IMG/VR virus record: IMGVR_UViG_3300028800_000066
Coordinates: 8,207 to 72,206 of that record
Origin: a virus
Taxonomy: Duplodnaviria; Heunggongvirae; Uroviricota; Caudoviricetes
Direction: 5' to 3' (one strand)
DNA: 64,000 nucleotides
The notes under the pieces are model-generated. The model was given only the letters and a program-made list of their open reading frames with translations, made no database searches and had not been told where the DNA came from. Positions within the stretch are counted from its first letter, which is position 1; each line of letters starts with the position of its first letter. Shown here piece by piece: positions 31,388-63,985 of this stretch. Made by a program: the position numbers and the translations under genes.

Positions 31388-31461
31388 AGCAAGCGGTGGG
31401 ATTCGAACCCACGAATAACGGTTTTGCAGACCGTCCCCTTAGACCACTTGGGTACGCTTGC
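31388..31461 (-). tRNA. tRNA-Cys (GCA)
   Basis: Cloverleaf with GGTTCGAATCC T-arm (read from rc). Anticodon loop CTGCAAA. Confidence 0.8.
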
Positions 31462-31496
31462 ATTTGGGGGAGTTTCCTCCCCCAAGTATTTCTTTA

Positions 31497-32426
31497 CTAC
31501 TCGTCCTTATCCTCGGCCTTAGCGGCGGCGGGAGCCGCCTTGTGACCGTGGCTGATGAGTGAATCGGTATTAATCAAGATGTTACCAGCCTGACCGCCAG
31601 AAACCATCAGAGGATAAACACCATCCCACTTCTCAACCTTTTTGCTCTCAATCAACTCGCGGGTCAAGGAAGCCGACAACTCGCGGTTAGCCATAGCCTG
31701 AGCCTTAGCGCGAATCAGGACAGCCTGAGCTTCACCGTTAGCAACAGCCACAGCCTTTTCGGCCTCGGCCTTTGACTGAGCAACCTCGTTTTCAATCTGC
31801 TGAGCCTTTTGGACGGCGGCATTCTTAGCATTCAAGGCCGCAGTCACACTCTCGGGCAGACGGAAAGCACCAATCAGAGAAAGGTCATCCACGACAATAC
31901 CTTCGGGGGCAACCTGGGCACGAACATCCTTGGTGACGGCGGTAATAAACTCCACCTTCTTGGGCCCGTAAATCTCGCTGACCTGATACTTAGTAGCTTC
32001 CATGTTCATGGCATTACGGACGAAATTGTGCAACTGCTTATCACGAATCTCATCGTTGCCTTCACGGAATTTCTGGAACAGGTCAGAAATCTTCGCCACA
32101 TCGTAATGATAAGTAATGGCGATATCGCAATTCACGACCTGACCCTCAGCCGTCTGAATATTAAAACTCTCATTCGTAGGGCTACCTTCGCTGGGATTGG
32201 CGGTCCAGCTATAATTCTGCTGGAAAGTGGGGAACGGATAAAGTTCCTCATTCACACCGATGTAATAACGCCCAGGCGTAAGAACCTCATTCGAAACACC
32301 CTTCGAACCGCCAGTCAGATAAACCTTCACACCAACATAACCAGCGGCGACCTTCGTGCAACCAGTGGAAAACGCCATCGACATGACGACGAAAGCCACC
32401 AGCATCAAGCTAGTATATTTACGCAT
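31497..32426 (-). CDS. SPFH/band-7 (HflC/prohibitin-like) lipoprotein
   Basis: Lipobox LAFSTGC. SPFH-like core, Ala-rich coiled coil. GC about 50 percent, far above the rest of the window. Confidence 0.75.
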   Translation of the reverse strand: MRKYTSLMLVAFVVMSMAFSTGCTKVAAGYVGVKVYLTGGSKGVSNEVLTPGRYYIGVNEELYPFPTFQQNYSWTANPSEGSPTNESFNIQTAEGQVVNCDIAITYHYDVAKISDLFQKFREGNDEIRDKQLHNFVRNAMNMEATKYQVSEIYGPKKVEFITAVTKDVRAQVAPEGIVVDDLSLIGAFRLPESVTAALNAKNAAVQKAQQIENEVAQSKAEAEKAVAVANGEAQAVLIRAKAQAMANRELSASLTRELIESKKVEKWDGVYPLMVSGGQAGNILINTDSLISHGHKAAPAAAKAEDKDE

Positions 32427-32452
32427 TTCTTGTACCTGTGAGTGAGAGAGAA

Positions 32453-32686
32453 TTAAACTTTCTTTTCCTGACCGTTCTGATTCTGCGTTTCTTGTTCTTT
32501 CTTATGAGCAACATACAGGCCATTCAACCACAACACGGCCCACAGCAACAGACCAAGGATAATAGCAATACCAACACACACCAAAAGAGTGTCTGCCGCG
32601 CTAATCAACCAAGGAAGCACCACGCCGAAAAGGATGCCCAATCCGACCAAGAGTGCGAACACTTTCACAATCGTAGAATTCTTCAT
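32453..32686 (-). CDS. small integral membrane protein paired with SPFH gene
   Basis: Two TM helices. Also GC-rich. Co-oriented directly downstream of the SPFH gene. Confidence 0.5.
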   Translation of the reverse strand: MKNSTIVKVFALLVGLGILFGVVLPWLISAADTLLVCVGIAIILGLLLWAVLWLNGLYVAHKKEQETQNQNGQEKKV

Positions 32687-32740
32687 CGTACCCTCATGAG
32701 TTATCTAACTGTTGAATTATACCACACTTCGGCTTGTTTG

Positions 32741-33259
32741 TCAAGACCACCAGCTTTGAACCTTTTGTCTCACATCGTGGAACACTTTATCGTAATCCGC
32801 TTTTTCTCGTTCTTCCATCAATTTCAGGATTCTGTCTCTTTCTTTTTCGGCTTTCTTGTTAATGGGTTTCCATTTATTCCCATACTTTTTATCGTATGCA
32901 TCCCATTCCTGTCTACAATAATCGTTGTCATGTTTTAATCTATGTATGGCATCCCTAACTTCTTGAATCTCTTTGGCGTAAATAGGACCAGACAAAGTTT
33001 CATCCGTTTCGCTCACCTGATGATTCGGGTCATTCTGTAAGACGTTCTGTGTTCTAGAAAGTTGATAATCCATAACTTCCAGAACATCAGTGCCCTCCCA
33101 ATCTCTAAGACTCCACAGAGTAGGAATCCAACGAATGATGCTCCATACCTTCTGACATGGAATTTCAACCATATCTTCGAATGGTTCATAAATGAAAGCA
33201 TCTAACCATCCATAGGTTTCTATTCTATATTTCTTATGAGCAATCCATCTTTGGAACAT
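32741..33259 (-). CDS. hypothetical protein
   Basis: ORF. Confidence 0.5.
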   Translation of the reverse strand: MFQRWIAHKKYRIETYGWLDAFIYEPFEDMVEIPCQKVWSIIRWIPTLWSLRDWEGTDVLEVMDYQLSRTQNVLQNDPNHQVSETDETLSGPIYAKEIQEVRDAIHRLKHDNDYCRQEWDAYDKKYGNKWKPINKKAEKERDRILKLMEEREKADYDKVFHDVRQKVQSWWS

Positions 33260-33267
33260 TTATTCCT

Positions 33268-33507
33268 CTAGTTGAGCACAGGGAGGGAATCGAACCCATC
33301 GTGTAGAGATTTTGCAGACCTCTGCCTTACCACTTGGCTACCTGTGCGTTTTTTATTTGGGTGCCTCTTCATCCAGATGAATTTATCAGCCAAATCCATC
33401 GACTCTCTATTTATGCTGTTATCCATGAAAATAGGAACCGCATATCCCTTAGCTTCGTAAACAGCCAATTTTTTAATTAATCTTTTTCTACTTTTCTTTG
33501 TAAGCAT
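33268..33507 (-). CDS. doubtful ORF overlapping tRNA-Cys-like gene
   Basis: The N-terminal 50 aa look protein-like. The last 25 codons are the tRNA sequence. Possibly a real short gene running into the tRNA. Confidence 0.3.
   Translation of the reverse strand: MLTKKSRKRLIKKLAVYEAKGYAVPIFMDNSINRESMDLADKFIWMKRHPNKKRTGSQVVRQRSAKSLHDGFDSLPVLN
33275..33347 (-). tRNA. tRNA-Cys-like (GCA), weak T-stem
   Basis: Acceptor, D and anticodon arms fold (loop CTGCAAA). T-stem has only 3 clean pairs. May be a low-scoring or degenerate copy. Confidence 0.5.
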
Positions 33508-62248: not shown

Positions 62249-62258
62249 GCACTTTTTG

Positions 62259-62344
62259 CGGAAGATAGAGGAATCGAACCCCTGCGCCAAGTTAATGTGC
62301 GACTGTTTTCGAAACAGCTCAGCCTGCCAACAGCAAAATCTTCC
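62259..62344 (-). tRNA. type-II tRNA, probable Ser (CGA), irregular D region
   Basis: Acceptor ggaagat/atcttcc. AC gctgt-TTCGAAA-acagt. Long variable arm. T-arm agggg-ttcgatt-cctct. Confidence 0.5.
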
Positions 62345-62354
62345 ATTTGTCCAA

Positions 62355-62990
62355 TTACGCTTTTTCCTCGAACTTTGTGTAAATATCCTGTAATTCCCTA
62401 GACATTTGTGTATAATGTTTACCGATTAAACCTTTCTTTCTTAACCATTTCAAATCGTTTGAAAGATAGGCATTCATTTCATCAATCAATTGTTTCTTGG
62501 AATAACCCTTCTTTATCAAGAAGGCGCTTAATTCTTTAACGTCTTTATCTTTAAAATAATTCTTAATTACTTTTCTATATTCAGGAACCATTGAAAAAGA
62601 AGCGTGTGTTACTTCATGATTGATTGTTTCTTTTTCAGTTCTATCTCTCATGAATGTTCCGATAATGTAAAATTCTCCCTTTACATTACGAAACAAATCC
62701 AAGAACTGTTGTTCTTTATTGCTAAGAGGATTGAACTTTCCTTCATAGAATGGTTTTAAATCTTTTGAAGGAACATTATATCCAGTCCAATCTTCATAGT
62801 ACGTGAATCTCTTTTTGTTTTGAGTCTTCATATACCATTTCTTAAATTGCGCTAACGTAAAAACTTTACCTGAAAATTCTGGTGATTCAAAATATTCTTC
62901 GAACCTCAACAAAGTGGAAGTCAAATCGTATCTTGTCTCAAATCTGACATGATACACGTAAGAGTTGATTTTGGTGAGTTCAATTTTCAT
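62355..62990 (-). CDS. hypothetical protein (partner of small RNA-ligase-like gene)
   Basis: ORF translationally coupled to the upstream ligase-like gene. Confidence 0.5.
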   Translation of the reverse strand: MKIELTKINSYVYHVRFETRYDLTSTLLRFEEYFESPEFSGKVFTLAQFKKWYMKTQNKKRFTYYEDWTGYNVPSKDLKPFYEGKFNPLSNKEQQFLDLFRNVKGEFYIIGTFMRDRTEKETINHEVTHASFSMVPEYRKVIKNYFKDKDVKELSAFLIKKGYSKKQLIDEMNAYLSNDLKWLRKKGLIGKHYTQMSRELQDIYTKFEEKA

Positions 62991-63610
62991 GCTAATTGTT
63001 CGAAGAGTTTCTCGTCACCTTTGCATAGCGTTTTTAATTTCTGCATCCAAGCTTCACTCTTTATCTTGAACATTATGGTTTGGCGGTGTTTATCTAACTC
63101 GTTGGACTTGCAAACTACACCTTCAAAAGTTACGCCGATAGCAGTTCCATCCTTTACAGATGAAATAAATTCATGATTCAAGTTTCCTTGATAAATAAAA
63201 TTAGAGATATCAAGATGTCCAGCAATCCTTAAAAACTCTCTCGGACCAATCACGCCCTTTTTGAAAACATCAATATCAAAAAGTTTTACATCGTGTGTCT
63301 CGTTCTTTTCGTGTCTACCAGCGAAAGAACTAGGTCCATAATATTCAAAGAACGCAGTTGCTCTTTCAAATCTTTCTCTTCTAAATATGTCACTAAGTTG
63401 TTGCTCATACTTGGCTTTAATCAATTGGATTGATTCACCAAGTAATTCATCCGTATGGTCTATAAGATGATGTCTGCTTCCGAACTTAGAAAGACCATTC
63501 TTCCTATCCCACTCCGCTCTTATATTGGAACCATCTAATTTATCAAAAGCGTAGATATAAATATTTTGTGTCTGCTTTGATATTGTAGGATATTGTTTCA
63601 TGACCTTCAC
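62987..63610 (-). CDS. small nucleotidyltransferase, RNA/DNA ligase-like (KxDG family)
   Basis: Motif I FDKLDGSN. Motif IV FEGVVCK. Motif V MFKIKSE. Second ligase-like gene in the window. Confidence 0.5.
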   Translation of the reverse strand: MKVMKQYPTISKQTQNIYIYAFDKLDGSNIRAEWDRKNGLSKFGSRHHLIDHTDELLGESIQLIKAKYEQQLSDIFRRERFERATAFFEYYGPSSFAGRHEKNETHDVKLFDIDVFKKGVIGPREFLRIAGHLDISNFIYQGNLNHEFISSVKDGTAIGVTFEGVVCKSNELDKHRQTIMFKIKSEAWMQKLKTLCKGDEKLFEQLA

Positions 63611-63876
63611 TAAGTTTTTGACTGAATCTTTTTTATCAATCCATCAATTGCATCATCCAAATCTTCTGACTCACAACTTATTCCAGAAATTTTATCTGTT
63701 ACTCTATAACCATCTGACCAAGTTTCATAATTATGGTATGGTCTTGTGTTAAATAATTCAAATCCATTCAACAATTCAATTGTGACTCTTACACTTGGCG
63801 TGTCCATCCCGACAGGAAAAGCACGTCTTAATTTCTGGTCTAAAACATTTAAAGAATCAAATGACTTATTAGACAT
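63610..63876 (-). CDS. hypothetical small protein
   Basis: ORF. Confidence 0.4.
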   Translation of the reverse strand: MSNKSFDSLNVLDQKLRRAFPVGMDTPSVRVTIELLNGFELFNTRPYHNYETWSDGYRVTDKISGISCESEDLDDAIDGLIKKIQSKT

Positions 63877-63897
63877 TTTATTCCTAGAGTTATGATG

Positions 63898-63985
63898 CGG
63901 AGGGTGAGAGACTCGAACTCTCGAAGCCCTTTAACAGGCTTTCCGACTTTCCAGGTCGGTGCAGTAGCCACTGTGCCAACCCTCC
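63898..63985 (-). tRNA. tRNA-Ser (GGA), type II
   Basis: Loop CTGGAAA. Variable arm aaagcctgttaaagggcttc. Confidence 0.75.

Follow-up and report, generated by a model that had tools for sequence, protein, structure and literature searches.

Diverged same-anticodon tRNA genes in a large tRNA island of a Caudoviricetes phage

The tRNA island and its extent

The stretch of DNA analysed here, referred to as the window, comprises 64,000 nt (positions 8,207 to 72,206) of the IMG/VR virus record IMGVR_UViG_3300028800_000066, assigned to the Caudoviricetes, and carries an island of tRNA genes in which many anticodons are represented more than once. ARAGORN identified 41 tRNA genes between positions 31387 and 63985, all on the minus strand and none on the other strand. 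Rfam searches, in which the gathering score for tRNA is 29 bits, also found 38 of the 41 with scores of 32-73 bits, as well as one further gene at 46555-46642, giving a total of 42 tRNA genes and a tmRNA gene in the window. As nearly all of the genes retain U8, G18G19, U33, a purine at position 37, a TTCRANY T-loop and stems with no more than three mismatches, the calls are not due to chance. 'Ile(TAT)' at 44699 and 'Arg(CCG)' at 47595 are doubtful as working tRNAs, as is, to a lesser degree, the Leu(TAG) gene found by Rfam only. The genes are given below with their strand; labels such as L062 and rel2 refer to contigs with which the window was compared.

31008..31359 (-): tmRNA, tag peptide read as AEEMELLAA; Rfam RF00023, 116.7 bits; relatives have a tmRNA at the same slot
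31387..31461 (-): tRNA-Cys(GCA), canonical; ARAGORN, Rfam 66.5 bits; 100% identical in L063
33274..33347 (-): tRNA-Cys(GCA), second copy, 77% identical to the first; Rfam 52.3 bits; 92% to the L062 Cys gene
33509..33582 (-): tRNA-Thr(CGT); ARAGORN, Rfam 65.4 bits
37419..37492 (-): tRNA-Leu(CAG), type I body with short variable loop, 74 nt, A73; Rfam 67.5 bits
37969..38055 (-): tRNA-Leu(TAG), type II; ARAGORN, Rfam 59.2 bits; 84% to Leu(AAG) at 46361
39802..39875 (-): tRNA-Thr(TGT), canonical; Rfam 73.1 bits; 82% to the L062 ortholog
39889..39969 (-): tRNA-Thr(TGT), second copy, 81 nt, enlarged variable region containing ggGAAAcc; Rfam 51.8 bits
39987..40060 (-): tRNA-Gly(GCC); Rfam 58 bits; 77% to Gly(TCC) at 41112
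40353..40425 (-): tRNA-Thr(GGT); ARAGORN, Rfam 58.1 bits
41112..41183 (-): tRNA-Gly(TCC), copy 2; Rfam 63.9 bits; 63% to the copy at 41297
41297..41370 (-): tRNA-Gly(TCC), copy 1; ARAGORN, Rfam 68.7 bits
42906..42979 (-): tRNA-Trp(CCA), single copy; ARAGORN, Rfam 53.8 bits
43717..43802 (-): tRNA-Leu(TAA), copy 2; Rfam 56.1 bits; 65% to the copy at 46457
44699..44788 (-): doubtful tRNA-like 'Ile(TAT)', 90 nt, C8, weak D arm; ARAGORN only
45870..45942 (-): tRNA-Arg(CCT); Rfam 47.3 bits; 77% to Arg(TCT) at 46180
46180..46253 (-): tRNA-Arg(TCT), copy 2; Rfam 58 bits; 53% to the copy at 47360
46361..46444 (-): tRNA-Leu(AAG); ARAGORN, Rfam 53.3 bits
46457..46541 (-): tRNA-Leu(TAA), copy 1; ARAGORN, Rfam 60.5 bits
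46555..46642 (-): second Leu(TAG)-like gene, type II, loop TTTAGAT, A73, A-rich D loop; Rfam only, 37.1 bits
46664..46748 (-): tRNA-Leu(CAA), type II copy; ARAGORN, Rfam 52.6 bits
46761..46837 (-): tRNA-Leu(CAA), type I body with short variable loop, 77 nt, A73; ARAGORN only
47360..47436 (-): tRNA-Arg(TCT), canonical, CCA encoded; Rfam 65 bits
47595..47680 (-): weak tRNA-like 'Arg(CCG)', 86 nt; Rfam 32.2 bits
48460..48534 (-): tRNA-Arg(ACG), canonical; ARAGORN, Rfam 62.4 bits
48939..49015 (-): tRNA-Arg(ACG), second copy, 68% to the first; Rfam 47.1 bits; L046 has two Arg(ACG) genes at this slot
52322..52396 (-): tRNA-Asn(GTT), copy 3; Rfam 62.6 bits
52957..53029 (-): tRNA-Asn(GTT), copy 2, loop TTGTTAC; Rfam 65.9 bits; 100% identical in L047
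53144..53217 (-): tRNA-Asn(GTT), copy 1, non-canonical; Rfam 44.3 bits
56519..56591 (-): tRNA-Pro(TGG); Rfam 69.6 bits; second copy beyond the window, L039 1534-1605
56610..56683 (-): tRNA-Ala(GGC), G3:U70 present; Rfam 62.2 bits
57182..57255 (-): tRNA-Ala(TGC); Rfam 64.7 bits; non-canonical second copy beyond the window, L039 4154-4230
58925..58999 (-): tRNA-Asp(GTC), canonical; Rfam 66.4 bits; 87% to the rel2 ortholog
59016..59088 (-): tRNA-Asp(GTC), second copy, 51% to the first, pyrimidine (T37) at position 37; Rfam 44.6 bits
59105..59176 (-): tRNA-Glu(CTC); ARAGORN, Rfam 62.4 bits
60273..60347 (-): tRNA-Glu(TTC), copy 2; Rfam 56.1 bits; 82% to the rel2 ortholog
60729..60802 (-): tRNA-Glu(TTC), copy 1; ARAGORN, Rfam 62.5 bits
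61376..61451 (-): tRNA-Lys(CTT), canonical; Rfam 69.5 bits; 91% to the rel2 ortholog
61553..61630 (-): tRNA-Lys(CTT), non-canonical; Rfam 48.3 bits; 100% identical in rel2
61961..62033 (-): tRNA-Lys(TTT), canonical; Rfam 64.9 bits; 93% to the rel1 ortholog
62047..62119 (-): tRNA-Lys(TTT), non-canonical, A8; Rfam 44.9 bits; 84% to the rel2 ortholog
62258..62344 (-): tRNA-Ser(CGA), type II; ARAGORN, below the Rfam gathering score; 87% to the rel2 ortholog
63897..63985 (-): tRNA-Ser(GGA), type II, last in the window but not the end of the island, which continues in L038 and L039; Rfam 54.1 bits

The 'Ile(TAT)' call at 44699 had no match to the Rfam tRNA model and gave 23 bits (E=0.93) with the tRNA-Sec model. 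'Arg(CCG)' at 47595 has three stem mismatches and a D loop without GG, and CGG, the codon that it would read, is the rarest in the phage at 0.5 per 1000. The type I Leu(CAA) gene at 46761 is 50% identical to the type II copy and has 20 Watson-Crick pairs, GG in the D-loop and a TTCGAAT T-loop.

A preliminary description of this DNA, made from the letters and the open reading frames (ORFs), had counted redundant isoacceptors, and its numbers were exact for Asn(GTT) (three), Lys (four, with two each of CTT and TTT), Gly (three), Asp (two), Glu (three) and Cys (two). The six or more Leu genes that it reported proved to be eight (CAG, two TAG, two TAA, AAG and two CAA), and the four to five Arg genes to be six (CCT, two TCT, CCG and two ACG), or five without the weak CCG gene; Thr, given as three, is represented by four genes (CGT, two TGT and GGT). 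Also present in the window, outside that list, are two Ala, two Ser, one Pro and one Trp gene and the doubtful 'Ile(TAT)'.

The right-hand boundary assigned to the island was an artefact of the window. Metagenome contigs that are 99.6-100% identical to the window extend the island by at least 10 kb past position 64000 and carry 24 further tRNAs. These are three Met, Pro(CGG), Pro(TGG), two Ile(GAT), a fifth Lys, two Phe and one Tyr, then two Val(TAC), Val(GAC), Ala(TGC), Ser(GCT) and Ser(TGA), and finally two each of Gln(CTG), Gln(TTG) and His. The whole island is a single region of ~43 kb with at least 65 tRNAs for all 20 amino acids.

A phage terminase is encoded at 13388-15178 of the window. 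As judged by exact-protein look-ups, the same phage was recovered in several ENA, JGI and Logan metagenomes with 98.8-100% DNA identity, and these population variants (L033-L045, 98.8-100% identical) are too close for selection analysis. Beyond them, 12 kb of the island had no megablast match among 50,697 phage records, an exact search for tRNA-Lys(CTT) found no match in IMG/VR, and neighbours at the protein level were distant (32% identity for the terminase and 44% for Ro60). Relatives of the island RNA ligase are located on IMG/VR viral contigs of 335-607 kb. In distant IMG/VR relatives with 57-67% identical ligases, the tRNAs are at most ~80% identical to those of the window, a distance at which orthology is not resolvable. 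The nearest named homologs of the release factor RF2 belong to the Bacillota, at only 44-46% identity, the ligase family is spread over unrelated genomes, and the promoter consensus of the island is generic sigma-70; none of these pointed to a host.

Divergence and pairing of same-anticodon copies

Leaving CAT aside, 21 of the 39 anticodons in the whole island are multi-copy, with two or three genes each, and a duplicated anticodon occurs in 16 of the 19 amino acids, Ser, Trp and Tyr being the only exceptions. Triple copies are confined to Asn(GTT) and Lys(CTT). The doubled anticodons approximate a minimal decoding set, with U34 in four-codon boxes, G34 in two-codon boxes and both readers for Lys and Gln; those present once are mostly C34 tRNAs and the G34 tRNAs of four-codon boxes.

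Copies that share an anticodon were said in the preliminary description to have different body sequences and not to be recent tandem duplications, and this was borne out, as the 14 same-anticodon pairs in the window are 50-77% identical. Their mean identity is 62% versus 55.8 +/- 4.5% between tRNAs for different amino acids. In the acceptor and anticodon stems the paralogs are 46% and 40% identical, respectively, close to the 32% and 30% seen between tRNAs for different amino acids. Identity rises to 87% in the anticodon loops, and most same-anticodon copies have the same 7-nt loop. Same-anticodon tRNA copies of bacteria are normally identical or nearly so through concerted evolution. Like such cellular multi-copy genes, those of the island are clustered and number several per anticodon, but they differ from them in being close to the background between amino acids. 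Near-identical copies, as expected of recent or concertedly evolving duplicates, were not found among the pairs of the window, which also occur in relatives with 69-85% protein identity. The sequences thus support an old origin of the copies as paralogs that have since diverged.

The closest pairs in the window mostly differ in their anticodon, namely Leu TAG/AAG (84%), Leu TAA/CAA (78%), Arg CCT/TCT (77%), Gly GCC/TCC (77%) and Lys CTT/TTT (74%), and the island has hence expanded by local duplication combined with anticodon shifts. Neighbouring tRNAs are specific for the same amino acid in 31 of 63 cases versus 2.9 expected, a number that was reached in none of 100,000 shuffles.

Each doubled anticodon tends to pair one canonical with one non-canonical gene. 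The better copy averages 65 Rfam bits and the worse copy 47, and 17 of the 21 pairs straddle the median score; under random re-pairing, the difference in means had P=0.002 and the number of straddling pairs P=0.0095. The core features given above (U8, G18G19, U33, purine 37, the TTCRANY T-loop and no more than three mismatches in the stems) are present in almost all of the low scorers, and tRNAs for one amino acid all have the same discriminator base, low scorers included. Judged by these positions, both copies keep the nucleotides that are needed by a working tRNA. Two other regularities were considered for the pairs and rejected: comparison of the paired sequences did not bear out that one copy encodes CCA and the other does not, and gene order set against Rfam scores showed no consistent order, including none with the non-canonical copy always upstream.

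A change of structural class is seen in the window in the short variable loops of Leu(CAG) at 37419 and Leu(CAA) at 46761 and in the enlarged variable region of Thr(TGT) at 39889. Type I tRNAs with A73 comprise these two Leu genes (37419-37492 and 46761-46837), Leu(CAG) at L062 6105-6179 and Ser(CGA) at L064 2743-2817; L062 holds its type I Leu(CAG) at the slot of the gene at 37419. The L062 gene is 77% identical to Lys(CTT) at 61376 of the window, which suggests its origin from a Lys tRNA by anticodon change.

For comparison of gene order, three contigs from two other samples were available as syntenic relatives, with 69-85% protein identity to the window. Duplications retained there in the same order are two Lys(TTT) and two Lys(CTT), two Glu(TTC), two His, two plus two Gln, two Val(TAC), two Ile, two to three Phe, three Asn, two Arg(ACG), two Thr(TGT) and two Cys. 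The non-canonical Lys(CTT) at 61553 is identical in rel2, even though rel2 proteins are 69-80% identical to those of the window, and the second Ala(TGC) (L039 4154-4230) is 92-94% identical in two relatives. Where stems have changed, pairing has been kept. Asn at 53144 is 86% identical to its L046 ortholog, with compensatory changes at 6:67 (A-U to C-G) and 28:42 (G-C to C-G), and in Lys(TTT) at 62047 the whole anticodon stem is swapped relative to rel2 (acggc/gccgt to cctga/tcagg) with the D and T arms nearly unchanged. Over 21 orthologous pairs, the anticodon stem changes fastest, at 18.3% versus 11.8% for the other stems (P=0.02), and the anticodon loop at 4.8%. As judged from this conservation in relatives and from the compensatory stem changes, the second, structurally different tier is evidently maintained by selection.

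In relatives, the slots of second copies are often occupied by versions with a long variable arm, including Lys(TTT) of 85-86 nt, Lys(CTT) of 83 nt, His of 84 nt, Asn of 83-95 nt (five loci), Cys of 89 nt and Thr of 82-86 nt. Thus, the slot of Asn at 52957 holds an 85-nt long-arm Asn in L046, and that of Thr(TGT) at 39889 an 82-nt counterpart in L062. The variable stems are 3-7 bp long and mostly capped by GAAA, GCAA or UUCG tetraloops, and the acceptor-end marks of the amino acid are kept; all Asn copies, those with long arms included, have U1-A72 and G73, and all Leu copies A73. The long-arm loci are L046 7725-7809; L051 11852-11936 and 6856-6939; L049 6104-6189 and 7125-7207; L062 12134-12222 and 2927-3008; L064 252-340 and 4090-4175; L063 4127-4208; L009 20421-20515; L016 12427-12517; L018 15919-16012 and 16549-16631; and L029 16938-17024, with 39889-39969 as the counterpart in the window. 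Long arms on Asn, Lys, His, Cys and Thr tRNAs, which are normally short-arm, recur across the clade of huge phages and in many cases share a genomic slot. In the distant relatives, duplication was seen most often for Asn, in 4 of 6 loci, for His, in 3 of 7, and for Asp and Glu, in 2 of 6 each.

Conservation along the island is mosaic. Some tRNAs (such as 61553-61630, 31387-31461, 52957-53029 and, just beyond the window, L039 5315-5387) are 100% identical where proteins are 69-90% identical, and their neighbours are only 60-80% identical or replaced outright, which suggests cassette exchange by recombination among related phages. Other unusual tRNA-like genes were observed outside the window. 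At L039 2718-2835, Rfam gave a 118-nt tRNA hit of 39.9 bits that ARAGORN missed; it has an insertion of ~45 nt at the anticodon-loop region with a second T-arm-like motif, plus a variable arm, and may be an interrupted or composite tRNA. The relative L049 carries a gene at 9427-9507 with an 8-nt anticodon loop and a four-base anticodon, 'tggg', like those of frameshift suppressors, and, at 2428-2495, a 'Tyr(ATA)' call of 68 nt.

Codon demand, nuclease targets and competing explanations

Demand was expressed as the phage's internal codon frequency in 109 ORFs of the composite sequence, with codons assigned by wobble rules and without comparison to a host. Copy number per anticodon correlated with the frequency of the decoded codons (Spearman 0.48, P=0.002; 0.47 for the structural genes at 1-28 kb). 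With the second Leu(TAG) counted, the coefficient was 0.42-0.43 (P=0.006-0.008), alike for ORF cut-offs of 50, 100 and 200 amino acids. Within families, the doubled anticodon nearly always serves the top codons (AGA, TTA/TTG, GGA, ACA, GCA, GTA, CCA and GAA), and the rare codons CGG, CTG, AGG, ACG, TCG and CCG are served by single C34 tRNAs. The anticodon that is doubled within a family accordingly follows the relative synonymous codon usage (RSCU), and the choice of duplicated anticodons hence partly follows the phage's own codon demand.

The explanation preferred here, tentatively and with slightly more doubt than confidence, is that the island provides an autonomous, early-expressed tRNA complement, which serves supply and general insurance against tRNA depletion and is not aimed at particular nucleases. 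It would be the early-transcribed translation island of an uncultivated huge phage, with a nearly self-sufficient set of at least 65 tRNAs amid tmRNA, RF2, L7/L12, Ro60, RNA ligases, RlaP and Tpt1. About 21 anticodons would be covered in two tiers, by a canonical tRNA and by a long-diverged non-canonical isodecoder with the same anticodon loop and discriminator. Strong host-type promoters would express the set early and make phage translation independent of the host tRNA pool, and the second, unlike body would be kept as general insurance. If host tRNAs or one isodecoder were cleaved, sequestered or depleted by a factor that reads shape or stems, the other copy could still decode, and the ligase, RlaP, Tpt1 and Ro60 would mend or triage cut tRNAs. 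Selection for functional backups in jumbo phages has a precedent (PMC7824862).

Several observations weigh against this explanation. The correlation with codon demand is moderate, the load carried by one copy varies between 0.5 and 43 codons per 1000, and there are doubled anticodons of low demand (Cys, 11.6 per 1000; Arg ACG, 14.1; His, 18.9) as well as single ones of high demand (Ala GGC, 43 per 1000; Val GAC, 39; Tyr, 35; also Gly(GCC)). As most paralog pairs are identical in the anticodon loop, a nuclease that reads only the loop could not distinguish the copies, and they would be no shield from it. The excess of change in the anticodon stem is modest, and paired sites are not independent. 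The divergence of adjacent copies could be a by-product of selection against the recombinational loss of identical repeats. Finally, no polynucleotide kinase/phosphatase, HD/HAD phosphatase or RtcB was found in a Pfam scan of the 50 window ORFs, which covered small ORFs only in part, and a complete repair pathway is therefore not demonstrated.

The main rival is pure dosage, which is unlikely on balance. It holds that the most used tRNAs are needed in quantity, that identical tandem copies were recombined away so that only copies with drifted stems but fixed loops and identity nucleotides persist, and that their divergence has no defensive value. Copy number that tracks demand, the doubling of the most used anticodon of each family, and the local duplication implied by 31 of 63 neighbours sharing an amino acid versus 2.9 expected are as this would predict, as is a stem-centred, compensatory divergence with conserved loops; in distant relatives, too, the multi-copy anticodons are mainly those of highest demand (Asn, Asp, Glu, Lys and Phe). 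Dosage thus explains the correlation and the adjacency. It fits less well with the doubling of Cys, Arg ACG and His at low demand and the single genes for Ala GGC, Val GAC and Tyr, with the systematic pairing of canonical and non-canonical genes, with the recurrent class change of second copies at the same slot across relatives, which neutral drift does not predict, and with the 92-100% conservation of some non-canonical copies where proteins are 69-85% identical.

The preliminary description had proposed a different purpose, in which anticodon nucleases of known specificity attack just those isoacceptors that are amplified (Lys by PrrC, Arg by colicin D, His/Asn/Asp/Tyr by enzymes of the colicin E5 type, and specific tRNAs by Retron-Eco7/PtuAB and VapC) and the extra copies replace cleaved tRNAs, rather than simply compensating for codon usage. 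In the version assessed here, the extra copies could also be decoys for these targets. Its doubt about simple compensation was justified in that copy number tracks codon use only in part (Spearman 0.42-0.48), the fit is not tight, and demand explains only part of the copy numbers; counter-defence directed at specific targets was weakened by a comparison of anticodon classes. When the target classes it had named (Lys, Arg, His, Asn, Asp and Tyr) were compared with the rest, 7 of 10 anticodons were multi-copy versus 14 of 29 others (Fisher P=0.29), so that the named classes are not enriched and a match between amplified sets and known targets is not supported. Tyr, named as a target of Retron-Eco7/PtuAB and colicin E5, is single, and many amino acids outside the target classes are also duplicated (Cys, Gly, Thr, Val, Ala, Pro, Phe, Ile and Leu). 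The apparent match arose because only part of a general doubling was in view. The highest demand per anticodon falls on the split-box Asn, Asp, Glu and Lys, the very classes that had been stressed, and here supply and defence are therefore confounded and make the same prediction. In addition, a bacterial Schlafen (PMC13056530) cuts tRNAs for Lys, Ala, Met, Val, Phe and Ile, including those encoded by phages, and with published tRNases hitting so wide a range, a match to targets does not discriminate. The identity of most paralog anticodon loops is a further difficulty. In its favour are the triple copies, found only for Asn(GTT) and Lys(CTT), the frequent duplication of Asn, His, Asp and Glu in distant relatives, the presence of repair genes, and published work. 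Counter-defence by phage tRNAs against anticodon nucleases has already been proposed (van den Berg et al. 2023, PMC10264068), and PMC11555353 gives experimental precedent for phage tRNAs as an escape from tRNA-targeting defences. Taken together, nuclease-specific counter-defence is neither shown nor excluded here, and as an account of the amplified set it is judged quite improbable.

A comparably small probability is given to the view that the non-canonical and class-switched copies are not ordinary elongators but are charged by another synthetase, follow the identity rules of a second host or have non-decoding roles as decoys, Ro60 partners or primers. LeuRS, SerRS and AlaRS ignore the anticodon, and a long variable arm is read by SerRS; long-arm tRNAs with G73 might thus be charged by SerRS. 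Type I bodies on Leu anticodons (37419 and 46761) and on a Ser anticodon in L064, the tetraloop-capped long variable arms found in the clade on tRNAs for Asn, Lys, His, Thr and Cys, and the Ro60 gene within the island can be read in this way. However, the discriminator and acceptor-end features follow the amino acid of the anticodon, the anticodon loops are canonical (U33, purine 37), and there is no sign of recoding, with all three stop codons in use and a normal gene density. Decay of the low-scoring second copies as pseudogenes of a birth-and-death process is highly improbable and, for most copies, largely excluded: despite their lower scores against the tRNA model and real defects in Arg(CCG) at 47595, 'Ile(TAT)' at 44699, Asp at 59016 (T37) and Lys at 62047 (A8), invariant nucleotides and stems are intact in almost all, helices are maintained by compensatory substitutions, and non-canonical copies are held at the same slots with 84-100% identity in relatives.

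The preferred explanation of supply with general insurance could be taken further, although this extension is itself unlikely. The clade may keep a parallel 'shadow' set of tRNAs, an evolved, shape-diversified pool with the same anticodon loop, discriminator and core tertiary nucleotides but re-engineered bodies, in which stems are fully swapped, some members are class-switched and alternative bodies recur at fixed slots. Such a set would be invisible to architecture-reading host tRNases or to the phage's own host-shutoff nuclease; alternatively, its bodies might be read by a phage-specific partner.

Much of what is described here is already published, including the tRNA arrays of huge phages, the translation and repair genes that accompany them, and the counter-nuclease hypothesis (PMC7162821, PMC7824862, PMC10264068, PMC11555353, PMC5852040). 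Huge phages with up to 67 tRNAs per genome, together with tmRNA, RF1/RF2 and L7/L12, were reported by Al-Shayeb et al. 2020 (PMC7162821). The island resembles these arrays in its at least 65 tRNAs, in the tmRNA, RF2 and L7/L12 genes beside them, in having relatives on contigs of 335-607 kb, and in its ligases, which were described there as being 'for tRNAs cleaved by host defenses'; unlike that report, which gives counts only, isodecoder pairing, pair synteny and class-switched bodies are described here. Xanthomonas phage XacN1 (PMC5852040) likewise covers all 20 amino acids, has tRNA-processing/repair genes and carries tRNAs matching phage-favoured codons. However, its 56 tRNA genes lie in two identical terminal repeats, each with 29 tRNA-like sequences of which 26 are canonical, whereas the present island has ~65 distinct sequences in one region of ~43 kb with duplicates that are 50-77% identical. 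Large tRNA clusters are also known from cluster C1 mycobacteriophages (36 tRNAs in Rizal; PMC10264068). The preliminary interpretation is in essence the model of van den Berg et al. (PMC10264068), which rests on how the anticodon loops of phage tRNAs differ, at known sites of cleavage, from those of known host tRNAs; in the island, by contrast, the loops are canonical and mostly the same between copies, and variation lies in the stems and variable arms.

No precedent for the canonical/non-canonical pairing, the conserved synteny of pairs or the class-switched bodies turned up in limited literature searches, and it may be new that, across the clade and at conserved slots, canonical tRNAs are paired with isodecoders of a different body and sometimes of a different class. 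If the two-tier reading is true, huge phages would protect translation by shape-diversified spares of the whole decoding set and not nuclease by nuclease, which would explain huge-phage tRNA counts beyond decoding need. The island would then also offer natural chargeable tRNA bodies that differ at almost every stem position, even in class, and these could serve synthetic biology as well as studies of the features that tRNases and synthetases recognise. If instead dosage and drift suffice, this is one more huge-phage translation island of known type, and it would teach caution: since the nuclease-favoured split-box tRNAs are also those in highest demand, matching tRNA lists to 'known nuclease targets' would be no evidence.

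Repair genes, promoters and other genes of the island

The presence of repair genes amid the tRNAs, as put forward in the preliminary description, was confirmed. They comprise two genes of the RNA-ligase family and those for RlaP, Ro60, a Macro-domain protein and Tpt1/KptA, in addition to the tmRNA.

26547..27128 (-): Tpt1/KptA-family RNA 2'-phosphotransferase; Pfam PF01885, 47.2 bits
41471..42325 (-): RlaP-family (RNA-ligase-associated Pol-beta) nucleotidyltransferase; PF10127, 71.4 bits; phrog_388, 202 bits
50531..51550 (-): RNA-ligase-family protein, 339 amino acids; PF09414, 113 bits; phrog_24030, 472 bits
54018..55721 (-): Ro60/Rsr ortholog with TROVE and vWA domains; PF05731, PF25045
57257..57760 (-): Macro-domain protein, weak match; PF01661, 24 bits (cut-off 22)
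62987..63610 (-): second, small RNA-ligase-family protein; phrog_548, 54 bits; PF09414, 24.6 bits, below the cut-off of 27

In phage T4, tRNA-Lys cut by PrrC is mended by Pnkp and Rnl1. Unlike in T4, the island ligases match PF09414 and not the T4 Rnl1 family; the rel2 ortholog of the small ligase at 62987..63610 has a PF09414 match. Neither island ligase had a match in a PDB sequence search against solved structures, and an HHH_8 protein gave a marginal PolX match only. The ligase at 50531..51550 has an extra N-terminal domain that matches HNH-endonuclease PHROG families. It has 5870 homologs at E<=1e-60 in a metagenome protein collection, and in cellular records its family occurs in Leptospira and Achromobacter and in metagenome-assembled genomes of Saccharibacteria and archaea. 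The RlaP gene and the PF09414 ligase gene share the island but are 8 kb apart and not adjacent.

RNA repair modules of jumbo phages have been catalogued (Iyer et al. 2021, PMC7824862). The island is like these in having RNA ligases, RlaP, TROVE/Ro, Macro and Tpt1-type enzymes, and the co-occurrence of RlaP with an ATP-dependent RNA ligase that was described there is found in it. The phage Ro60 is 41-44% identical to Ro-like proteins of actinophages, including ~41-42% to those annotated in Mycobacterium phages.

The island has six perfect TTGACA-17-TGnTATAAT promoters on the gene strand, and three of these directly precede tRNA clusters. This is far above chance, for which ~0.002 perfect matches per 20 kb was our own estimate, and the island is therefore probably transcribed strongly by the host RNA polymerase. 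Five of the promoters are as follows.

32716..32744 (-): perfect sigma-70 promoter within the island; consensus match
42355..42383 (-): perfect sigma-70 promoter upstream of RlaP and the Gly tRNAs; consensus match
47545..47573 (-): perfect sigma-70 promoter, 109 nt upstream of tRNA-Arg(TCT); consensus match
53245..53273 (-): perfect sigma-70 promoter, 28 nt upstream of the tRNA-Asn at 53217; conserved in L046
62220..62248 (-): perfect TTGACA-17-TGnTATAAT promoter, 101 nt upstream of the Lys cluster; 12/12 consensus

Five genes of the sigma-70 family and one for a 131-amino-acid protein with a weak sigma-70 region 4 match are located in or beside the island. The coordinates listed for the sigma-family genes, the region 4 protein included, are 29350-30300, 38548-39687, 59167-59739, 59741-60253 and 25326-25721, all on the minus strand, and an adjacent pair of small ECF-like factors is among them. 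The sigma genes and the perfect host-type promoters together suggest a transcription cascade run by the phage.

The genes for ribosomal protein L7/L12 (L039 955-1317) and RF2 (L039 8896-9882; TIGR00020/prfB model, 412 bits) both lie inside the tRNA island, that for RF2 immediately beyond window position 64000. A phage RF2 would fit a host with reassigned UGA, and the phage itself uses TAA, TAG and TGA. Stop-codon recoding in the phage was rejected as the reason for RF2, since the three stops are used 76, 19 and 14 times, respectively, and the genetic code is therefore standard.

Other genes amid the tRNAs encode a dephospho-CoA kinase (TIGR00152, 118 bits; 47827-48420), a nucleoside 2-deoxyribosyltransferase-like protein (36304-36768) and a DUF3228 protein (36768-37397), all on the minus strand and kept in relatives, as well as a cold-shock-domain protein and a thioredoxin.

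A segment of ~215 nt at 53277-53491 (minus strand) separates the first Asn tRNA from the ORF downstream of Ro60, and its conservation exceeds that of the surrounding tRNAs and proteins. It is ~90% or more identical to L046 7355-7585 over ~280 nt, the L046 ligase being only 80% identical. An extended -10 promoter, TGATATAAT, and a rho-independent terminator, AACCCCTCCGG...CCGGAGGGGTTTTCTTTT, belong to the segment itself, which also contains a motif resembling a tRNA D arm, TAGTTTAATGGTTTAAAC. Rfam gave no match for it or for the surroundings of Ro60, and a consensus fold from two sequences was uninformative. It is a candidate Y-RNA partner of the phage Ro60; alternatively, it could contain an ORF of 28-30 codons (MKTLT...NLWLGN.NLLS) with a good Shine-Dalgarno sequence.

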